This document shows positions 6,485 through 61,590 of a stretch of DNA of 64,000 bases, one piece after another. A model generated the notes under the pieces. That model was not told the DNA's origin and did no database searches. It saw only the letters and a program-made list of their open reading frames with translations. The DNA is taken from NCBI GenBank assembly GCA_951406725.2, contig OX597815.1:63860001-63924000 (forward strand). The letters are read 5' to 3'. Positions within the stretch are counted from its first letter, which is position 1, and each line of letters opens with the position of its first letter. Made by a program: the position numbers and the translations under genes. The stretch comes from Octopus vulgaris (Eukaryota).

Positions 6485-6647
6485 AGATGCAAATATACAT
6501 AGTCAATAGTACATTATATTACTTCCTATTAATTTCCAAAGCGTCATTAAAGTTAGCATCATTATCGTTGTCAGATGCAAATATACATTGTCAATAGTAC
6601 ATTATATTACTTCCTAATAATTTCCAAAGTGTCATTAAAGTTAGCAT
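6485..6647. repeat. Tandem duplication, ~88-bp period
   Basis: agatgcaaatatacat..gtcaatagtacattatattacttcct..ttaaagttagcat occurs at 6485 and 6573. Confidence 0.9.
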
Positions 6648-6661
6648 ATATATATATATAT

Positions 6662-7120
6662 TCAATACACATAAAGGGTAAAATATAATTAATTTAATAA
6701 AATTAATAAATTTCACCCAGTAGTTTTTTCGGTATGGAAAAGACCATATTTGGTAAGGATTATATTAATTATAATAAAGGGTTAATTGCAACAAGTTGCT
6801 CAAAACCATATACCGAAAATATTAGAAATAGCAGCCAGATAGGTCACTATTTCTACTACTAGTAAAAAAGTCCCCGCAAACAAACAGAAGTGGTAACCCG
6901 TATATGGTAAAGAGAAATCCCAGCCTATTGGATTAATTATGGACGAATTCGTTTCTAGATTAGAACCGAAGGTTCATTTCCTTGTCAACATAATATTTCC
7001 TATAAATCTAGAAATGCTAGGGAAAAAAACTCACCCATTACATCAACCCGATCAGGCGACATCGAACGATATAACGGTCCGCTAGCATCTCCACATTTAT
7101 ATAGACAGGTGAATTCGTAA
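6662..7120 (-). mobile_element. Penelope-like pLTR element, same family as 13575-14435
   Basis: (TA)n on both sides; shares agggtaaaat..aatttcacc, attagaaatagcagc and gtttctagattag with the 13.6-14.4 kb element. Confidence 0.65.
6937..6993 (-). ncRNA. Type I hammerhead ribozyme, U3:A8 core covariant
   Basis: UUAUG-UUGACAA-ggaaauGAACC uuc GGUUCuaaucua-GAAA-CGAAUUCG-UC-CAUAA; perfect 5-bp stem I; GUC cleavage triplet. Confidence 0.75.
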
Positions 7121-7464
7121 AATATATATATATATATATATATATATGAAGCCTACAGAAGCACCCAAGTACCTCAATTCCATCTACAAATTACTTCAGT
7201 CTACTGGAGGGATAAAGGTAGAATGAGGTATTTTTGCCTCTTGGCTGTAACAGCTGTAAGATATTTTCCTAATTTCTATTCCTGTATGTTATATATTTTG
7301 ATAATTACTGGTATCTTTATATATTATATGTAAAGCTTATTATGTTATACATGTATGTATGTATATTGTTGTAATTGTCATTTTAGTAAATAAATAAATA
7401 AAATGACACAATATGTCTAAAATTTGATGAATACTACCTATTCATCCCCTCCATTTTCTTATTG

Positions 7465-7730: not shown

Positions 7731-7879
7731 ATATATATACATACATACGCAAACACAGGTGTGTATAGGCACCTTGACCAAGTTCTTCTATAGCCTGGAG
7801 CCAACCAAAGCCTGTTGACTAGATTTGGTAGACGGAAACTAAGAGAAGCCTGCCATATGCATGTATATACGTATGGGTG

Positions 7880-9558
7880 TATGTATGTTTGTACAACAAG
7901 GTATGTATGTATCTATACATGCAGATTTGTATGGTTTGTTTTATGTATGTATTCTCAAGCATATTGTTGCATATCTAGACATGATCATATATATAATGAT
8001 AAACTGCTGGAAAGTTTTACAGATTTTTAAAATTTCAGTGATGGATTGGATCTGTAGTCTTCGAATTAGCTTTCTCCTTTCTATTTTGAGAAGCCTAATT
8101 TCTCAAGATTAGTATTACTTATCCTAGGGCTCCTCTAATTACACGTATAAAACTAAACTTGTAATTTGGATAGAGTAACTGCAGATTTCTCAGTAGTTCA
8201 ACGTAGGTATTCTCTTTTTCAATGATCTTCAACTTAACATCCGCTGGGTAGCTAATTTCCACAACAGTTTCTCTTCTCCATCCCAAATCATTATATCAAG
8301 TTTGTTGTGCTTTCACTGGGACATTCCACCAGTATTCCTTTTTATTCTGAGTGGCCATGGGGCTTCATACTGTGGCTTTTTATTTCTTTGTCCTCGGGAT
8401 TACCCATCCGACGGATTTCATTATAGAGTGTCCTTGCTACAACATCATGTCTCATCGGTAGATAATACCATGAGGACATTTTCGGAGAATTGCTTACGAT
8501 GTGGGTAATATCTTCAGTGTGAACTCCACTAAGTCTGCAGCAGTTGTCACATTTCACTGCTTTTCCTGCATCTCTATCCCTTTTGTGCATCAGGAATTTG
8601 GTTGATATTTTCTGATCCTGGAAACGCATACCCTTCAAAGTGAGAGCTAGTAATCCGGCTATTGGTTCATGATAGACTGCTTTGAGGATGAATGTTACTA
8701 TCATCTCAGAGCTTTCTATTAACATATCCATGCATAGTCTTCTGCTCATATATGCTCATCCTTTCATTTTATGATACGTTTTGGTAGAGTTGTGCGACTT
8801 CTTTGGGCATGTATTTAAGATTATCAGACAATGAATGTTACTCAAGGAGCTGTCTTCCAAGTCTTATGATGTTATCAGCTTCATGTATGCAAACTGGGTC
8901 GAGGGATGCAATTCGACGCTTGGTGGTTAAAAGAAGTTGCCGAAGTGATATGATGCGACATGCAAAGGTATTTTGGATCGATGTTAAGCCTCTGGTAGAG
9001 GTGATCTACGTTACTGTTTATGTGTTAGTATTTTTCGGGTTCTCACATCAATGGCTCGGATCTTATCAAGCGTCTAATCAAGCAGCCCAAATGTTGGTAC
9101 GAGAACTGGCACTGCAAACACATTGTGGGCCACTATTTTATTGAAAGTAGAGAGTTCTGAAGACCAAATTTTCTCTATTCGGCTGTGATATTCTTTGGTG
9201 ACATGTGTTTTGCTACAGATGCCATTATAAGATATGTTTTCATCCACCCCTAGATACCTGTAACATTCCTTGTACGATATAGGGAAAACAGTCAAGTCTG
9301 ATTTACAGTTTTTCCCCCTTGCCACAACCATATAATATTTATCCTGACCAAACTCGAACCCTACTTCCTTTGAGAATGTTGTAACTAGGTCAAGGCTCTT
9401 TTTTAATCTCATGCATATTCTTTGCATAAAGTTTCAGGTCATCCACAAAGAAACAGTGTAATCTTGGTATTTCTGTTTCCTTGTGAATCAGTGAGATATC
9501 CTTCAGACTTCTTTAACATGAATGACAAGGGGTTTACAGAAAGTATAAACAGCACAGA
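7880..9558 (-). mobile_element. Decayed RLE-type non-LTR retrotransposon (R4/Dong-like), 5'-truncated, in (CATA)n
   Basis: Minus-strand RT motif VDDLKLYA (~9422-9445), YRYLGVDE, IWSSELSTFNK, zinc-knuckle-like CDNCCRL..EDITHIVS, RHDVVA; stops and frameshifts; (TATG)n at both ends. Confidence 0.85.
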
Positions 9559-13506: not shown

Positions 13507-13578
<72 letters not shown>

Positions 13579-13753
13579 GCTTAGTAAAATAAATTACTTT
13601 GCCACATACTGAACTCATTAGAAATAGCAGCTAAAGAAATTTCTTCAGCTATTTCTAATACTTAAAGAAGATCTCTCTCAGATAGTGTTTGCCTAAACCA
13701 ACTCACAAAAGTATGGGGGAAAAAACATTAAAAAATCAAGTGCAAAGGTTATT

Positions 13754-13805
13754 TGAGAACGTACGTTTCTAGATTAGTCAATTCGACATTTCTTTCTTCA
13801 GCTCA
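13754..13805 (-). ncRNA. Type I hammerhead ribozyme (left arm)
   Basis: UGAG-CUGAAGA-aagaaauGUCgaauuGACuaaucua-GAAA-CGUACG-UU-CUCA. Confidence 0.7.
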
Positions 13806-14099
13806 GAAGAAATTCCTTGAATCGGATTTGGGAACACTGAAAGTCGGGAGCATACCCTTTCGGCTTCTAATCACCTCTAGAATTCTGCTCGAACTAAAAG
13901 TGCTATCAAATTCGAATATGCAAGCGAAGAATTTCTGTCAATTTTAACCCACGCTGGTGGAAAGGGGAGAGCAGAAATTCTTCGCTTGCATATTCGAATT
14001 TGATAGCACTTTTAGTTCGAGCAGAATTCTAGAGGTGATTAGAAGCCGAAAGGGTATGCTCCCGACTTTCAGTGTTCCCAAATCCGATTCAAGGAATTC

Positions 14100-14150
14100 T
14101 GAGCTGAAGAAGAAATGTCGAATTGACTAATCTAGAAACGTACGTTCTCA
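14100..14150 (+). ncRNA. Type I hammerhead ribozyme (right arm)
   Basis: tgag-ctgaaga-agaaatgtcgaattgactaatcta-gaaa-cgtacg-tt-ctca. Confidence 0.7.
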
Positions 14151-14431
14151 AATAACCTTTGCACTTGATTTTTTAATGTTTTTTCCCCCATACTTTTGTG
14201 AGTTGGTTTAGGCAAACACTATCTGAGAGAGATCTTCTTTAAGTATTAGAAATAGCTGAAGAAATTTCTTTAGCTGCTATTTCTAATGAGTTCAGTATGT
14301 GGCAAAGTAATTTATTTTACTAAGCCCTTATATATAATGTAATATTTTGAATTCGCCTATAATGGTCCCTTTACATACTGAATACTTGGTGAAATTGATT
14401 AATAATTAATTAATTTTACCCTCAATTGTTG

Positions 14432-14476
<45 letters not shown>

Positions 14477-34112: not shown

Positions 34113-34491
34113 ATGTATTTTTGTACATATATAGTTATTTATAGTTATACATAAGTATATATGTGTGCATCTATCTGGCCGTCGATCTATCCACATATAT
34201 GTGTATGTGTGTGTTTTGTCCCTATAGGCGCATGCATGGCTGTGCAGTAAGAAATTTGCTCCCAACCACATGGTTCCATCCCTCTACATTTTACTTTGGC
34301 AAGGTGTCTTCTTTCACAGCCCAGGGCCGACGGAGACTGAAAGAAGTATATATATATAAGTTCAGTAAAAATTTAGATTCAGTTGAATATGGTACTTAAG
34401 TTAAAGGCACCAGAATTTGGTATGGTATTATCCATATAATTCAAAATGGGGTGATTATAATCAAAACTAGCAATAAGGATATCCAAAGGTA

Positions 34492-34581
34492 ATGCAGTAC
34501 GATCGTTTCATGCGGCTCCATTTAATTAAACAATGCAAGTATTACATCAGTTTTAAAATGTAGAGCAATCTTCAGTTGAAT
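34492..34581 (-). ncRNA. Type I hammerhead copy with damaged stem I
   Basis: auucaa-CUGAAGA-uUGC..GCAu-GAAA-CGAUCG-UA-cugcau. Confidence 0.6.
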
Positions 34582-35320
34582 AAAAATATAGAACTTAGTT
34601 AAATTGAAAAGATTGAAAAGATTCATTTTGATACTTATTACATTTATCAACATCACAAAGAGGGTAAGTACGTAGACAGGGAAACACGTTTCACCAACAG
34701 AAACATGGTAGTAATTAATATTTTTTCATGGAGATACTGCTTATCATTGATTTTACTAAGCTATTTAGATTTACTATTGGGGAAGGAGTTTAATACTATT
34801 CCATCAGGTCTAGTGGAGACAAGAATCTTTCTTTTATTGATAGAGGGAGAGATAGTATAAATGGCAGAGCGATAAATCAAGTTCCCTTTGAAGAACTCAA
34901 TTTTGGTTCAGTTGAATATATTCCAGCTAAAATTAGTAGGCCAAAACTGGTGGGGTAGGGAGAATAGAAACTTCTAATACTTAACTATTTAATAGCCATA
35001 ATCCTAATTGTGATTTGAAATAAATAGATATATTTTAGATAGTTTTTTCAAAGAATTCGAATAATTTTAGTATCTTATACAATATAGGGAGGGAGAATAT
35101 AGAAATGATTTCATATTTTTATATAGATATAAATCAAATTAATATAAATTTATAGTTAATTAGTAAATAGTAATTTATTGGTATTAATGAGTTAAATTAA
35201 AGGAATATGCTAAACATTTCATATATTATCTACTTGCTAATGACTTTAGAATGTATAAATGGAATGAGTATAAAAATGAATCGTTTCAATCTTTTCAATT
35301 TAACTAAATTCTATATTTAT

Positions 35321-35401
35321 ATGCAGCTGAAGATTGCTCTACATTTTAAAACAGATGTAATACTTAATTAAATGGAGTCGCATGAAACGATCGTACTGCA
35401 T
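35321..35401 (+). ncRNA. Type I hammerhead ribozyme
   Basis: AUGCAG-CUGAAGA-uUGC..(42 nt)..GCAu-GAAA-CGAUCG-UA-CUGCAU; perfect 6-bp stem I. Confidence 0.8.
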
Positions 35402-35459
35402 TACCTTTGGATATCCTTGTTGCTTATTTTGATTACATATACATATATATATATATATA

Positions 35460-36460
35460 CTAGCAGTATCGCCCGGCGTTGCTCGGGTTTGTAAGGGAAA
35501 TAACTATATAAGCATTTTTAGAGAGTTACTTCCCTTATAGATGCCAATTCAGGCTTTCTTAGCCATTTCTGTTTTGGTGTCTTCAAGCCATGAAGTCGTT
35601 GTTCTAAAAGAACGCTGGTCTCTTTGACAACGCTTTACGACGTTGATTTCTTTACACTCCCTTCCCCACAGCTTCACGAGGGAGGGAAGAAGGGGCAGAA
35701 GCAAACAGGTGCAGGTGTGACCATGGACGCCAACTCCGCCGCCATCGACACACGAAAAATTATGCATTAAAATGGAATAAAAAATGATGTTAAATTATTT
35801 TTAAAATCGTAGACTCATTGTAGACGCGCGCTAATACTCAGACGGGCTCGATATGAATCACGACTATAAGATACCCGAATTTGGTTAAACTGCACCGCAA
35901 AATGTGGGAGTAGTTAGGAATCTAAATCGAAGGGGACAGACACTCACACAACTACAGTTTTATATATATACTAGCAGTATCGCCCGGCGTTGCTCGGGTT
36001 TGTAAGGGAAATAACTATATAAGCATTTTTAGAGAGTTACTTCCCTTATAAATTCGGGCTTTCTTAGCCATTTTTGTTTTGGTGTCTTCAAGCCATGAAG
36101 TCGTTGTTCTAAAAGAACGCTGGTTTCCTTCACAACGCATTACGACGTTGATTTCTTTACACTCCCTTCCCCACAGCTTCACGAGGGAGGGAAGGGGGAG
36201 AAGCAAACAGGTGCAGCTGTGAGCGTGGACGCCAACTCCGCCGCCATCGACACACGATGCATTTTATGCATTAAAATGGAATAAAAAATGATGTTAAATT
36301 ATTTTTAAAATCGTAGACTCATCGTTGACGCGCGCTAATAGTCAGACGGGCTCGATATGAATCACGACTATAAGATACCCGAATTTGGTTAAACTGCACC
36401 GCAAAATGTGGGAGGAGTTAGGAATCTAAATCGAAGGGGACAGACACTCACACAACTAGA

Positions 36461-36470
<10 letters not shown>
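35460..36470 (-). mobile_element. Two head-to-tail non-autonomous Helitron copies (~510 bp each)
   Basis: ctagcagtatcgcccggcgttgctcggg at 35460 and 35971; same family as 45941-46576. Confidence 0.85.
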
Positions 36471-36536
<66 letters not shown>

Positions 36537-38276: not shown

Positions 38277-38528
38277 ATGATGATGATGAGGAGGACGACG
38301 ACGACGACGACGATGACGACGATGACGATGACAACGACGACGATTATGGTGATGATGGCTTCAAGGTTTGGCGCAAGGTCAGCAATTTTAAAGGGAGGTG
38401 TATAGTCGATTAGTCGACCTCAGTACTCGACTGGTATGTATTTTATTTTATCGACGGTGAAAGTTGATATCAGAAGTGTTTGCATTTTGTCCGACACGCT
38501 AACGCTTCTCCTATCTCATTGCCTTAAT

Positions 38529-38597
<69 letters not shown>

Positions 38598-38600
<3 letters not shown>

Positions 38601-39625
38601 GAAGGAACATGTATGATAATCGGAATAGCATGCTCTGGTGACTTTAGGATCAATGCGAAAGAAGAAAAAGTAAACAACTATGACGATTTGAAGTGGGAAA
38701 TACGAAGGTTGTGGTCAATGAAGAGAGTAGACGTGATACCAATAGTAATTGGTGCACTTGGAAGTATCAACACTCAACTACCAACATGGCTGAAAAAGTT
38801 AGGTGCAAATGTGAAGGTAGAACACCAACAAAAATCAGCATTGCTTAGAACTACAAGAATTCTTCTCAGGGATCTTGAAACATGACCAGTAAACAATTGA
38901 GTGGAGTGAAAATAAAAACTTGTAGAAATTGAAAATGCCTGATGGCTAAAATATTGCTATATTTAATTTCTAGAAAAATGCTAAATTTTCGCTGGGATCA
39001 ATCAAGAGCATTTACTCCCTCTAAACTCCGAAAATGGGTGATTTTTGTATATATTTTACAATAGCGGAGTTTGGGTGTTTGAGGGAGTAATATATATATA
39101 CCCTAACATACATGTATGTGTGTGCGGGTATATAGATTGTGTAATCTGGGGTGTAGTGAAAATAAAAAAAAGTTGTGGAAATTAAAAATGCCTGAGGCCT
39201 AAAATCTTGCTATGTATTATTACTTGGAAAATGCTAAATTTTCGCTTAGTATTTACTCTCTCAGATCCTGCAAACTCCACTATTGCTAAAAGATTTGCTA
39301 AAACCACCCATTTTCGGAGTTTAGGGACTTGAGGGAGTAAATGCCCTTGATTGATCGCAGCGAAAGTTTAACATTCTTTCTAGTAATTAAATATAGCAAC
39401 ATTTTAGCCTTCAGGTATTTTTAATTTCCACAATTTCTTTTATTTTCACGCCACCCTAGATTACACAGTCTATATACTCGCACACACATACATGTGTGTT
39501 AAGGTGGAATGAAAATAAAAAATTGTGCCAATTGAAAATGCCTTCCGGCACTTTCAATTTCCACAACTTTTTATTTTCACTCCACTCTAGTAAACAAATT
39601 TCACCTTAGTCTGCTGTGAGTTTTC

Positions 39626-39975: not shown

Positions 39976-41545
39976 TTTCCATGGGAACTCGTAATCCCCT
40001 TTAATATTTGTCTTATGTTTAAACCCTCTCAGTTTAGAATTAAGGAAGACAAAGGAAGAGCATCAGTTCAGAAATAGTAAAGGAAAAATTAGCCATTCGC
40101 TCTACATGGATGATTTGAAGCTTTTTAGTAAGAATGAGAATTTGGCATAGATAAGCGTGCAATATTAAGTATCAGAAAAGGGCAGGTAGTCAACAGCGAA
40201 GGCACCCAGTTACTAGATAGCCAGACATTAAAATCATTGAAAAGCGAAGAGGGTTATAAGTTTCTAGGAGTATTAGAATCTGACAGATAACAAAGAATAG
40301 AAATGAATACGAAAATTGAGAACATCAGAAAGGTGAGGAAGCTCATGAAGTCAAAGTTAAATGGTCGAATTTAGTGAAGACTGTAAATACTTGGGTAGTA
40401 TCATTACTTAGATACCCAACAGCTTTTGAAGATTGGACAAAAACTGAATTAGCAAAGCTAGACAGAACTAGAAAGGAATTCAATATGAATGGAGGACTCC
40501 ATCCAAGGGCAGGCGTAGCAAGATTATACTTACCTAGAAAGGAAGGCGGAAGAGGGTTAATATCAATAGAAGACTGCGTGGAGTTAGCTAGAGTAGATAT
40601 AGACTCCTATGTAAGTAATAGTGAAGAAAGTTTATTAAAAGCTACTAGATTCACAATAGGACATAGGGAAACCAAAAACCCAAACGAAGTTAAAAACCAG
40701 AAAAAAGAACAGAAATTATCTGACTGGCAGGAGAAGACGCTGCATGGTAGATTCCCAAAGATAACTGCAGCAAATAGTAGTAGTGAGGCATGGTTATGGT
40801 TGCAGAAAGGAAAGCTGAAAAGAGGGATAGGGAGTCTGTTAGTAGCTGCAGAGGATCAAGCATTAAGGACTAATTGGATAAAATCCAAGATAGACAAAAA
40901 CCAAGTATATTTCCAGTGTAGTTTATGCAAATCAAAAGAGGAAAACGTCACTCATATAGTAAGCGAATGTAGCATGCTAGCACAGAAAGAATACAAGACA
41001 TGACAACTAGGGAGAGTAATCTACTGGGAGTTATGTAGAAAGTTAAGATTTGAACATATTAAATAAACATGAAACTAGTAAAGTACTAGAGAGTAAGAAA
41101 TACAAGATGTTGTGGGACTTTAACATTTAGACCGACAAAGTAATAGAAGCTAGAAGGCCTGATTTAGCATTAGTAGATAAAGAGAATAGAAAGTACCAGA
41201 TAATTGACTTTACAGTCCCATTTGGTGCAAAAAAATCAATATGAGAAGTATAGAAAAAATAGTAAAGTACCAGGACTTAGCCATTAAATATAGAGACTAT
41301 GGAAAATGCAGGCAAAATGTATCCCTGTAGTTATAGGTGCACTGGGAACTATTCCTAGAGATCTGAACAGATGGATAGAGGAAATAGGCATAAAATCCAG
41401 TTTAGTACAGCTCCAGAAAACAGTGTTATTAGGGAGAGCTACGATACTTAGGAGGATTCTTGGCATCTAAGATTACTTGTTGTAACCCTGTGTTAGGACT
41501 CTTTTCTTTTTCAACAGTCTAATCTTTTGTGTGTATAGGAAAATA
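39975..41545 (+). mobile_element. Decayed R4/Dong-like RLE non-LTR retrotransposon, 5'-truncated, in (TAA)n
   Basis: RT motifs FHGNS*SPLIFVLCLNPLS, SHSLYMDDLKLF, YKFLGV, RLYLPRKEGGRGL; CCHC CSLC..THIVSEC; RLE RRPDLALVDK..IIDFTVP..PVVIGALG; ends aataataat. Confidence 0.9.
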
Positions 41546-45915: not shown

Positions 45916-45940
45916 TCTCACCACTACTGCGCTATGTATA

Positions 45941-46576
45941 TCTATATATATAAAACTGTAGTTGTGTGAGTGTCTGTCCCCTTCGATTTAGATTCCTAAC
46001 TACTCCCACATTTTGCGGTACAGTTTAACCAAATTCGGGTAGCTTATAGTCGTGATTCATATCGAGCCCGTCTGAATATTAGCGCGCGTCTACGATGAGT
46101 CTACGATTTTAAAAATAATTTAACATCATTTTTTATTCCATTTTAATGCATAATTTTTCGTGTGTCGATGGCGGCGGAGTTGGCGTCCACGCTCACACCT
46201 GCACCTGTGGGGAAGGGTGTGTAAGGAAATCAACGTCGTAATGCGTTGTCAAGGAGACCAGTGTTCTTTTAGAACAACGACTTCATGGCTTGAAGACACC
46301 AAAACAGAAATGGCTAAGAAAGCGTCTACATGAGTCTACGATTTAAAAAAAATTTACCATCGTTTTTTTTCCATTTTAATGCATTTTTTCGCTATTATAT
46401 AAGGGAAGTAACTCTCTAAAAATGTCTACGATGAGTCAACGATTTTTAAAAAAATTTACCATCATATTTTTTCCATTTTTAATGCATTTTTTGCTATTTT
46501 TTGGCTATAACTCTCTAAAAATGCTTATATAGTTATTTCCCTTACAAACCCGAGCAACGCCGGGCGATACTGCTAG
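45941..46576 (+). mobile_element. Non-autonomous Helitron
   Basis: A|TC start, hairpin, CTAG|T end; internal repeats of tacgatgagtc.acgattt. Confidence 0.85.
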
Positions 46577-47262
46577 TTAATATACAAAATGTGACGATAC
46601 GCACACATACACTATCACATACAGTCACATACTTATAGTAAGAGAGACACATACAGACATACATTCACGCATGTCAGTCGTCACATGTGTATATGTATGT
46701 GTAGATGTGTGTGTATGTTTAATAACGTACCTAATGTGGAAACACACACACAGTCAGAGAGACATACACACTCATACACCCATACACATACAATCAGAGA
46801 CACATACACATTCATATATGTGACGCCGTCGTGGTGGCTTAAAATGTTGTTTACTATCTCGTACGTATCGAACGCGCAAACACACGCACACAAAGTGAAA
46901 CAATATTAGAATGAAAAGTGGCAGAATAAAAGTGAAACAATATTATATCATACAAGGATGTCAATTCGTGGACAGAAATTACAAACCTCAATTCAGCGTA
47001 TAAAGCTCTAGATGTAAATAGGTTGAGCGAAAAAACTTGAGCCACTTTAGGATATTTTTGTCTAACGCATGAACGCTCAGTGTTGTAGTTGAAGTCTCAT
47101 TGGTTTGTAATGAAGGCTTATCGGATTATATCACAACGGTTTTCGATAGAGGGAGAAATGTAAGTAGTATATTTAAATAGATGGAGTGCAAAAAATTTAG
47201 AATAAGTAATGTTGTAGCGAGAACGTACTAATAGCTTGAAGACAAAGATATTTACGCACGAC

Positions 47263-50264: not shown

Positions 50265-50804
50265 CAAAAGATGTTCATTTTGAGAATCGTATGGCTATCA
50301 CAGAACGCTCTTCTAAGGACTCGGTTATTGGTCCATTCAACTGCTGCGAAGAAGTGTAATATTCATATAACTGAAAATCAAAAAAATTCCAGCGATGAAA
50401 TTATTTCACGTGAAGTATGTAAAAATTTAGTCAGTAGGCATGAAAGGTGAATATATATTTATTTAACCGCTTGTCTTTCATAGTCTGACAGCCGTTTCGC
50501 GAACTTCTTCATAAAGTATTTGCTTCAGTATGGAAGAAATTAAGCATAAATGTGTGCATTAATGTATCTCTGCTCAGCATTATATAACAATTGTATGCTC
50601 ACAGATCAATGTAAATAACGAAAGCTAGCTCCTCAGATCACCAGACGGTTCGACCATCTGTTTATACATACATACATGGATGCATACATCCATCCATGCA
50701 TACATCTATCCATCCATCCATCCATACATACATACATACATACATACATACATACATACATACATACATACATACATACATACATACATACATACATACA
50801 TACA

Positions 50805-51240
50805 TAGTAAGCATAACAGACCTGATATAATGATTTGGGATAGAGAAGAGAAACTCTGCACAATTGCGGAAATTAGCTGCCCAGTGGATGTTAACATGAA
50901 GCTTAAGATCAGTGAAAAAGAGAATACCTACGCTGAACTATTGAGAAATCTGCAATTACTCTACCCAGATTGCAAGTTCAGGTTTATAGCTGTAATTTTT
51001 GGGGTCTTTGGATATGTAACACGCTGCCTAAATACCAATCTTGAGAAATTAAGCTTCTCATTAATTCGAAGACTACAGATTCAATTCATCCCTGGAACTG
51101 GGAAAATCTGTAAAACTTTCCAGAAGTTTATCATTTAAATATATACGAACTTGTCTAGATATGCAATTATATGCATGAGAATACATACATAAAGCAAAAC
51201 ATACAAATCTGCACTTATACATACATACATACATACATAC
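50805..51240 (+). mobile_element. RLE LINE 3' fragment in (CATA)n, same family as 7880-9558
   Basis: SKHNRPDIMIWDREEKLCTIAEISCPVD..KISEKENTYAELLRNL..ICKTFQKFII*; (CATA)n on both sides. Confidence 0.85.
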
Positions 51241-51368
51241 ATACATACATACATACATACATAATATATATATCAGGTGATTGTGGGGGGGGGGGCAAAC
51301 ACAGACATATACGAATATGCACACACATATGTATATAATATATGTATATGTATATATATATATATCTA

Positions 51369-51946: not shown

Positions 51947-51977
<31 letters not shown>

Positions 51978-51978
<1 letters not shown>

Positions 51979-52830
51979 AAGTACACCACCATTACCACAG
52001 ATACAAACACACGGACACTCATCAATACCTGACTTTTAAGTTGTGCCATCCACCACATATAAAACACAACATACCATACTGCCTAGTCAGAAGAATTTGT
52101 ACCATTGTAGAAGATGCAAATATCAGGAACAAAATACCTAATAGAAGTAAGAGAATTTTTGCTCAAACAAAAATACCTGTCTCCACTTATAGAAAATGGC
52201 ATGCAGCGGGCTATAAAAACACCCATACAACAACTGTGAACAATTCAAAGAAGAGGAGAACAGGAACAAGTCATACCATTTATAATGACATCCAACCCAT
52301 GTCACCAGAATATCTTCAACATTGATCAAGGTAATGAATTAAAATATATAATCTCAGATCGAGCTATGGTTCTTAGTAAAAGACAGCCTAAAAACTTGAA
52401 AAATTATTAACAAAGGCAAAGTTTGACCTTAGCAACAAATACCAATCATTCACTGTATCTAAATGCAATGAGAGCCGGTGTGGCACATGTCAATTCATAC
52501 ATACAAATGAACACAAAAACCGAGAAAATATTCACAACTCCAAATATGAAATGCAAAAGCAGAAATTTATGTATCAAATGCCCGAATGTGAAGAACATAT
52601 GTGGGTCAGACTGGAAATGCACTATCAGAACGTTCGCGCGTGTACCGACAGTAAATCAGAGACCCAGATGTCCGTCAGATACCTTTGAGTAACCATCTAG
52701 CAACATATGTTCGGAAAATATTTATAATATTTCCATTTTACAAACTACACAGTCCACGAGAAACTGAGAGAAAAATCAGGGAAAAGAACTATATTAATAA
52801 ATTCCAACCCAAGCTAAATAATACTAATAC
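51978..52830 (+). mobile_element. Decayed Penelope-like element ORF (RT thumb and GIY-YIG endonuclease)
   Basis: YKHTDTHQYLTFKLCHPPHIKHNIPYCLVRRICTIV; KRQPKNLK; KCNESRCGTC; CKSRNL..IKCP..GQTG; frameshifted. Confidence 0.85.
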
Positions 52831-53391
52831 TTAGAGATACTATTTCTACTGCTACGACCACTAACAACAACAATACTAAAGGTGTTCGTGATGACGATAG
52901 CAGGAAAATACTAGCTAAGTCAAGAGAAAGGTCAGTAAAAATAATTTTATTTTTAGGTTTAAGGTTCTATTACCACAGCTACTCTTACCACCACCGCTAT
53001 CATCAACAACAACGACAATAATAATAAAGGAGATGATAATGGTGATGATAATAATATATATACACACTCATATATTGGTGTGTATATTGTAGCTCTCTTT
53101 TTCCGCTCTCTCTCTCTCTCTCTCTTCACCTCTTGGGTCATGGCTGGAAGACTTGAAAGATTATCTACGTTCGCTCGTGAGTACACAGATACCAAAAACA
53201 ATTATCGTAATGATGGTACAATCTACCGCTTGCGAATGATGGTTAAACTATTTAGTGTCGCAGTGAAATTTGGCCCGTTAGGACGTTTTCGGCACTTTGG
53301 ATTGGTGATAGAACCGATCGATGTCATAAATAGTTAACAACTCCTCAAGAATCGTTTACCACTCATTTTCAAACGGTGGCGATAAAACAAT

Positions 53392-53700: not shown

Positions 53701-53805
53701 GGCAGTATGGGATGTTGCGTTTTGTATGTGGTGGATGGCACAACTTAAAAGTCAGGTATTGATGTGTCCCCGTGTATTTGCATCTGTGGTAATGGTGGTG
53801 CTCTT

Positions 53806-53806
<1 letters not shown>
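53701..53806 (-). mobile_element. Short inverted Penelope ORF fragment
   Basis: THQYLTFKLCHPPHTKRNIPYC, homologous to 51978-52083. Confidence 0.8.
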
Positions 53807-53860
<54 letters not shown>

Positions 53861-53863
<3 letters not shown>

Positions 53864-60502: not shown

Positions 60503-61590
60503 CAGGGTATGCGTTTGCAATCCAGGAACAAAAAGTATCAACCAGATACCTGATGCACAAAAGAGATTGGGATGCAGGAAAAGCAGTAAAATGTGACAAC
60601 CGTTGCAGACTTTGTTGAGTTAACACCGAAGATATCACCCACATCATAAGCAGTCGTCCGAAAATGTCATCATGGTATTATCTACCGATAAGGCATGATG
60701 TAGCTGGGACACTGTATAATGAGATCCGTCGGAAGGATAACACCGAAGCCTAAGAAATAAGAACCTGCACTATGGTACAGGCAATAGTTACAAGTAATAA
60801 AATGAAGTAATGCTGAAATGTCCCAGTGAAAACCTCAATAAAATGTAAGCGACATAGACTTGACATAGTAATATGGGATAGAGAAGAGAGAAACTGTGTA
60901 CTGTTGTGGAAATCAGCTTCCCAGCGCATATTCACATAAAGACATAAAGCTAAATATCAGCGAAAAAGAAAATACCTAAGCTGAACTATTGAGGAATCTA
61001 CGGCTACTCTATCCAGATTTCAAATTCAGGTTTTTAGCTGTAACTATTGGTGCCTGGGATATGTAACACACTGCCTAAATACCAATCTTGACAAATTAGG
61101 CTTCTCAAAGTCAAAAAGGAGAAAGTTGATTGAAAGACTATAAATCCAGTCCATCACTGGAACTGTAAAAATCTGTAAAACTTTCCAGAAGTTTCTTATT
61201 TAAGTACATATGATCGTGTCTAGACATGCAACTATATGCCTGAAAATACATACACAAAAGAAAGCATACAAATCTGCTTACGTACATATACACATACATA
61301 CATACATACATACATACATACATACATACATACATACCCACAAACATACATACATACATACATACATATATACATGCATACATACATACAAAAATACATA
61401 CATACACACATACATACATGCATACATACATACATACATACATACATACATACATACATACATACATGCATACATACATACATACTCTGTTGGTGTGGAA
61501 ATTCTTATGAAAGAGCCTTGATCTAGGTTAGAAACCGCTTCTTCCTCTATTGGCAAGAAATCTTGAAATAAACTGAATAATGACATGCAT
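60503..61590 (+). mobile_element. RLE LINE 3' fragment with complete 3' UTR, (CATA)n family
   Basis: GYAFAIQEQ..KAVKCDNRCRLC..EDITHIIS..RHDVA..ICKTFQKF; UTR with internal (CATA)n. Confidence 0.85.

Follow-up and report, generated by a model that had tools for sequence, protein, structure and literature searches.

A type I hammerhead motif with a U3-A8 core in a dispersed repeat family of Octopus vulgaris, a candidate structured end of a Penelope-like retroelement

The insert and its hammerhead motif

The window, a stretch of 64,000 nucleotides of Octopus vulgaris DNA, is microsatellite-rich, and its dispersed repeats are taken here to resemble octopus SINEs. It contains a structured insert, bordered on both sides by (TA)n, whose minus strand carries a type I hammerhead motif. 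The insert and the motif comprise the following features:

6665..7119, minus strand: the whole insert, 455 bp, structured, a member of a repeat family, with no long open reading frame (ORF)
7122..7147: (TA)n run bordering the insert on its 5' side
6647..6661: (TA)n run bordering the insert on its 3' side
7002..7100, minus strand: predicted long hairpin adjoining the hammerhead upstream
6936..6994, minus strand: type I hammerhead motif, with core and stems I, II and III
6995..7000, minus strand: 5' side of the stem I extension, distal helix GGA and internal loop AAU
6982..6988, minus strand: core U3-U4-G5-A6-C7-A8-A9, aligned without gaps to CUGAAGA at 14104-14110
6957..6981, minus strand: extended stem II, 3 bp, a 3x3 loop AAU/UAA, 5 bp GAACC/GGUUC and a 3-nt loop
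6956, minus strand: unpaired A between 11.1 and G12, also present (at 14134) in the relative at 14100
6952..6955, minus strand: G12-A13-A14-A15.1
6943..6952, minus strand: stem III, a 10-nt palindrome giving 3 bp and a 4-nt loop as a monomer or 10 bp as a dimer
6941..6942, minus strand: predicted cleavage site after GUC (C17 at 6942), placed by hammerhead numbering
6930..6935, minus strand: 3' side of the stem I extension, internal loop UAA (U1.7 at 6935) and distal helix UCC

Read as its reverse complement, 6937-6993 comprises the core UUGACAA, a GAAA, a 10-nt palindromic stem III, the triplet GUC and complementary flanks and, as judged from these letters, is a natural U3-A8 hammerhead motif. 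An earlier note on this DNA had described the same core, with U3 and A8, and the same triplet, both of which are seen here; it gave no strand, and the motif lies on the minus one. In hammerhead numbering, U3 corresponds to 6988, A8 to 6983, A9 to 6982, G12 to 6955, A15.1 to 6952, U16.1 to 6943 and C17 to 6942, and U4-G5-A6, A9, G12-A13-A14, A15.1-U16.1 and H17 of the type I hammerhead are all present. The type I rule that places 10.1-11.1 directly between A9 and G12 is broken by the spare A, both in this family and in that of the relative at 14100.

Stem I, reported previously as 5 bp, is a helix as claimed but counts 6 bp (6994-6989 with 6941-6936), beyond which a 3x3 internal loop leads to a further 3-bp helix (7000-6998 with 6930-6932); the passage through the AAU/UAA loop into the GGA/UCC helix makes 1.7 a U, and for this position a contact with loop II has been proposed in extended hammerheads (PMC11875169). 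The GAACC/GGUUC pairing formerly equated with stem II does form, but only as its distal part, the junction being adjoined by GGA/UCU (6981-6979 with 6957-6959), whose first pair is G-U in the 6937 copy and G-C in its repeat family. The AAU/UAA internal loops and the extra A before G12 had been overlooked. With three helices arranged round the core and the molecule open at stem I, 19 of 19 pairs are possible at 6937 and 18 of 19 in the 14100 relative. The first GAAA (6980-6977), considered as G12-A15, was rejected by inspection because no stem II remains.

The fold of the insert has z = -5.9. Six-frame translation of 6665-7119 discloses no long ORF and neither reverse transcriptase nor GIY-YIG, and reading from the stem II AUG ends at a stop codon after at most 5 codons in the 6937 copy and 3 in the relative. 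The copy is solitary, with no tandem neighbour, and is likely 5'-truncated at about 7119, with its 3' end at about 6665. An 88-bp tandem duplication at 6485-6647 (1.9 copies, 96%) adjoins the (TA)n that borders the insert on its 3' side.

A descriptor comprising the core, a stem I of at least 4 bp, a stem II of at least 3 bp and a palindromic stem III, written after the matches had been seen, finds in the 64,000-nt window one U3-A8 match, three C3-G8 matches (13754, minus; 14100, plus; 35321, plus) and no mixed core, against no match to any of the four cores in 100 block-wise dinucleotide shuffles of the window. No second U3-A8 copy was found in the window. Folding energy alone does not single out the motif (z = -0.92). 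Rfam returned no hammerhead at E up to 10 in three focused scans, either at 6937 or at the three canonical-core copies, and the 150 whole-window matches listed, of 244, include no hammerhead family; this absence is uninformative, since the canonical-core copies are missed as well. A degenerate 22-letter pattern gave 8 matches in metagenome contigs, assigned to chance because none continues into a hammerhead or an element, and none in viral contigs; two 49-bp phage matches by blastn (E = 3e-3) are also taken as chance.

The repeat family and its canonical-core relative

Part of the stretch occurs in 20 of 24 listed public sequencing runs, with four organism labels, and the family was sampled from the contigs of 4 of those 20 (X1, X5, X6 and X10; three organism labels) at a threshold of 80% likeness. 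The contigs matching the insert number 469, 831, 291 and 108 in the four runs, most of them 90-99% alike; depth in contigs is distinct from copy number. None of the runs containing the stretch is listed as RNA, and X10 is only guessed to be RNA, contigs being unable to show transcription. C3 and G8 each stay below 10% of depth in X1, X5 and X6. No listed variant falls at 6988 or 6983, with 13 variants outside the list; the listed variants, none of them at these two positions, account for every A>G (6) and T>C (7) counted in X1, X5 and X6, and X10, with one unlisted A>G and one unlisted T>C, is therefore not counted for the 3:8 pair. On these frequencies, U3-A8 is a trait of the family rather than a product of decay, since C3 and G8 stay below 10% in the three counted runs. 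Mixed cores below 10% or in distant subfamilies may exist, because contigs drop rare variants and such subfamilies fall below 80% likeness. Independent variation of U3 and A8 among copies, which the earlier note had named as the outcome that would speak against it, is thus not seen at the 10% level in three of the four runs, the fourth (X10) being uncounted.

At least six positions of the 6937 copy are private, the family differing there at 86-100% of depth in all four runs. Among them, 6957 is C and not U in the family at 96, 97, 100 and 100% of depth, so that the family pair is G10.1-C11.1 and the G-U is private to this copy; the sequence context that the note had described as shared with 13754/14100 is consequently accidental in part. 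In the four runs, A stands at 6989 (2.1) in 89, 73, 79 and 0% of depth, and the matching U at 6941 (1.1) occurs in loose ends of X1, X5 and X6, the two not being linked on single molecules, which suggests from the letters a second two-sided change, at 2.1:1.1, within the family. A 1-nt deletion at 6948, in the stem III loop, reaches about 11, 3, 0 and 25% of depth, and the palindrome is lost there. Loose ends of the matching contigs occur at 6665 and 7119; 18 of them in X5 and 1 in X10 show (TA)n following the 3' end of other copies, and three contigs of X10 run on beyond 7119. The (TA)n and the run-on are in line with 5' truncation of the 6937 copy. No head-to-tail joint is listed among the matching contigs, among which a unit longer than the covered stretch would escape notice.

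The canonical-core relative comprises:

14092..14158, plus strand: C3-G8 relative, which repeats the extended layout of 6937, its two AAU/UAA loops and its spare A
13568..14336: the related element as an inverted duplicate, arms 96% identical; 13754-13805, minus strand, is its second hammerhead

The insert carrying the 6937 motif matches this relative with nhmmer E = 1.7e-8 over 14092-14423 and at 69% identity over 167 bases by blastn. The relative is a 770-bp inverted pair (fold z = -3.3 against shuffles), and both of its hammerheads, 14100 on the plus strand and 13754 on the minus strand, display the core CUGAAGA, the UGAG/CUCA stem and the 8-nt palindrome described before. A Watson-Crick 3:8 pair is present in each family, U3-A8 at 6937 and C3-G8 at 14100. 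When the 19 pairs of 6937 and 14100 are compared, 9 are unchanged, 8 are changed on both sides (including 3:8), 1 is changed on one side and 1 is broken; all 12 internal-loop letters and the spare A are identical. Registers slid against each other keep 6-9 of 19 pairs, and when the 10 changed pairs are given random letters, at least 9 remain paired in 0.035% of 100,000 draws. The pair table was drawn up manually so as to agree with the hammerhead model and spans two families only, so the comparison is supportive and stands apart from a formal covariation test. The earlier argument that covariation between the related elements speaks for selection on structure is borne out to this extent (8 of 10 changed pairs are two-sided), and the motif was probably selected at the family level. 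The pair 10.1-11.1 is G-C in the family (96-100%), G-U in the 6937 copy and A-U in the relative. Only the 13754 arm has an extra nucleotide between A9 and 10.1; 6937 and 14100 have none there.

The 3' parts of both elements, 6665-6870 and 14240-14436, display the same predicted series of hairpins despite about 69% identity, comprising a stem at about 6820-6855, a branched domain and a terminal A/U-rich hairpin; in these models a protein-binding or priming structure is possible.

Other elements of the window include (i) a third inverted pair at 34456-35437 (arms 34458-34647 and 35255-35435, 88% identical), whose plus strand has at 35321-35401 a type I hammerhead of canonical core, with a stem I of 6 bp, U1.7, a long stem II, a palindromic stem III and GUA as its site, and whose minus-strand twin keeps the core but has lost the stem I pairing; (ii) a frameshifted remnant at 51977-52960, followed by a decayed hammerhead-like stretch near 52890 and by a short second piece on the other strand at 53701-53862; (iii) a tandem pair of 512-bp units (94% identical) at 35450-36484, with short (TA)n at its borders, and a third copy of the unit near 46000 (45933-46589), which is inverted relative to the pair and contains internal repeats; and (iv) decayed fragments resembling non-LTR retrotransposon ORFs at 7849-8755, 38406-38885, 40320-41003, 50629-51270 and 60504-61336. 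By eye we take the 51977-52960 remnant to be the 3' half of a Penelope ORF, with a thumb region, Cys motifs and a GIY-YIG-like stretch; it has no significant Pfam match and is unrelated to the 6937 element by nhmmer. Pfam gave no significant match for 12 retroelement-like fragments elsewhere in the window either, the best being zf-RVT at E = 5.7e-4, below the cut-off.

Putative activity and competing readings

With a probability of roughly three in four, we read the locus as a type I hammerhead in which U3-A8 is the norm of an abundant dispersed family and which likely represents the structured end of a Penelope-like retroelement. In the hammerhead, G12 acts as the base and the ribose at position 8 as the acid, and the base identities at 3:8 matter mainly as a pair. 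RNA of the family would cut itself after GUC; position 8 would need only to pair with position 3, an arrangement that places its ribose for acid catalysis, and U-A could therefore replace C-G. In active elements, the ribozyme would trim read-through or tandem transcripts, either by dimerizing on its palindromic stem III or with the help of protein, modes already proposed or demonstrated for Penelope hammerheads, and the internal loops of stems I and II may dock, offsetting the weaker core. We infer the Penelope link of the 6937 family from architecture, namely the 5' truncation, the (TA)n target and the inverted twin (the latter in the sister element only), since no ORF is attached to either element.

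The 6937 copy itself would be an aged, 5'-truncated, solitary one, left slow or inactive by G10.1-U11.1 and a competing hairpin. Its hammerhead fold is predicted at -7.4 kcal/mol against a minimum of -9.9, a gap of 2.5 kcal/mol, and in longer context the pairing probabilities are 0.91-0.97 for stem I, 0.11-0.14 for stem II and 0.02 for stem III. The private U at 6957 joins the predicted competing hairpin (P = 0.66), and two copies cofolded are predicted to pair through the core and not through stem III. The copy is thus probably impaired, given its six private changes including G10.1-U11.1, its solitary state and the predicted misfold. A perfect 10-bp inverted repeat joins 6952-6961 and 7005-7014, its perfection depending on the private base at 6957, and could reflect chance or a template-switch correction; masking of G12-A15 by 7005-7014 was considered and set aside, the upstream arm being predicted to be held inside the long hairpin.

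Three other accounts of the locus compete with the Penelope-like reading. The element could be a non-autonomous retroelement, retrozyme-like or SINE-like, that never had its own ORF and borrowed Penelope protein, its 6-bp stem I with a defined loop and its 3-bp stem III resembling those of canonical type I ribozymes able to cut as monomers; the absence of an ORF in 455 bp and the strong folding of both families (z = -5.9 and -3.3) favour this, as do stem sizes that agree with the canonical type I description (PMC4209133) and the argument that retrozymes derive from Penelope pLTRs (bioRxiv 10.64898/2026.07.22.740005). Yet retrozymes are defined by tandem units, whereas the 6937 copy is solitary and no head-to-tail joint is listed, and the 3' ends run into (TA)n with the family continuing past 7119 in X10, so that we consider this origin unlikely. 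Decay of the 6937 copy alone from C3-G8, through two chance transitions, might be suggested by its at least six private changes in 455 bp, but those changes contrast with the family at 86-100% of depth in all four runs, while C3 and G8 each stay below 10% (X1, X5, X6); on this evidence lone decay is largely refuted and scarcely credible.

The U3-A8 core could instead be a passenger, spread from a founder whose ribozyme was dead or nearly dead, with RNA structure kept for protein binding. An anole Penelope element inserts in vitro even when mutation has killed its ribozyme (PMC11167929), C7-G8 would form a CpG in which G8-to-A is presumably an easy change, and the extra A before G12 is unusual. 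Moreover, the earlier statement that U3-A8 swaps retain activity does not hold unconditionally: a full pairwise mutagenesis of one type III construct (Roberts 2023, PMC9901934) found that only the G-C swap rescued the 3:8 pair, and activity of the U3-A8 motif is not assured because U-A brought no rescue there. Against a passenger core stand the two independent changes that must happen to restore a pair, the remaining core letters, all common to families about 69% identical over 167 bases, and the recurrence of natural U3-A8 cores in other lineages (PMC4209133, PMC3088659), which together leave it very improbable.

Beyond the Penelope-like reading, the two families might constitute an undescribed peripheral subtype of type I, in which docking AAU/UAA loops and the spare A permit monomer cutting with either C3-G8 or U3-A8. 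This proposal is possible but rather doubtful; if true, the families would offer a natural matched pair for studying how peripheral contacts buffer a core swap.

Relation to known hammerheads

The U3-A8 core, which the earlier note had implied to be new, has been in print since 2011 (PMC3088659) and in Penelope-like elements since 2014 (PMC4209133), so the finding changes little in this respect. Natural U3-A8 covariation was first reported by Perreault 2011, citing earlier in vitro activity of covarying pairs (PMC3088659); those core variants have U3-A8 in common with the 6937 family but, in the available part of the paper, are noted with neither a Penelope context nor an insertion between 11.1 and G12. 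According to Cervera and De la Pena 2014, U3-A8 occurs in Penelope-like elements of Schistosoma, such as Cercyon of Schistosoma mansoni, with about 1,300 hits, mostly as dispersed singles, with opposite-strand pairs 100-700 bp apart and with minimal forms of low in vitro activity (PMC4209133).

Cercyon hammerheads and the 6937 family share U3-A8, type I topology, a long helix II, a palindromic helix III and mostly dispersed single copies, and the opposite-strand pairs have a counterpart in the sister element of the 6937 family (PMC4209133). In contrast to Cercyon, the 6937 motif has a 6-bp stem I with a defined loop, a stem II broken by a 3x3 loop and a stem III of 3 bp, and its spare base lies before G12, not after A9 as in Penelope minimal hammerheads (PMC4209133); the 6937 family also has no attached ORF here. 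Of the minimal Penelope consensus, 6937 displays the palindromic helix III region (which a minority of the family lose) and lacks both the nucleotide between A9 and 10.1 and the 4-5-bp helix I with poorly defined loop 1; the G10.1-C11.1 pair of that consensus occurs in the family but is G-U in the 6937 copy. On these sequence features, the motif is best classed as a type I hammerhead carried by a Penelope-type repeat and not as a strictly minimal one, because it has no base between 9 and 10.1 and a long, defined stem I. Penelope-like elements show 5' truncation, inverted copies and a microsatellite bias according to Craig 2021.

Metazoan non-LTR retrozymes (Cervera and De la Pena 2020, PMC7229834) resemble the 6937 motif in a 6-bp helix I with a loop, a short palindromic helix III and low G+C, and U at 1.7 is shared with many extended hammerheads (PMC11875169). 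Retrozymes are, however, tandem arrays of about 220-390 bp yielding circular RNAs, whereas the 6937 copy, with an extended helix II, sits alone in (TA)n (PMC7229834), and the tandem units that define retrozymes are absent from it. Poseidon PAc of Anolis likewise carries a Penelope-borne hammerhead, whose 3:8 pair was probed with mutants changed at one or both positions; its core is canonical C3-G8 and its ORF starts in stem II, whereas the stem II AUG at 6937 soon stops (PMC11167929).

The twin internal loops and the spare A are the only unusual traits of the motif, its core being already known. Literature searches, covering sources in part and leaving Lunse et al. 2017, the likeliest source, outside the comparison, found this combination nowhere, save that one of the 56 rows of Fig. 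S3 of Cervera 2014 reads AGAAA, which gives the spare A before G12 a precedent (PMC4209133). Engineered swaps gave mixed results (PMC3088659, PMC9901934), and two sister families of one genome that share a scaffold and differ at 3:8 provide a natural control for U3-A8 cutting in retroelements.
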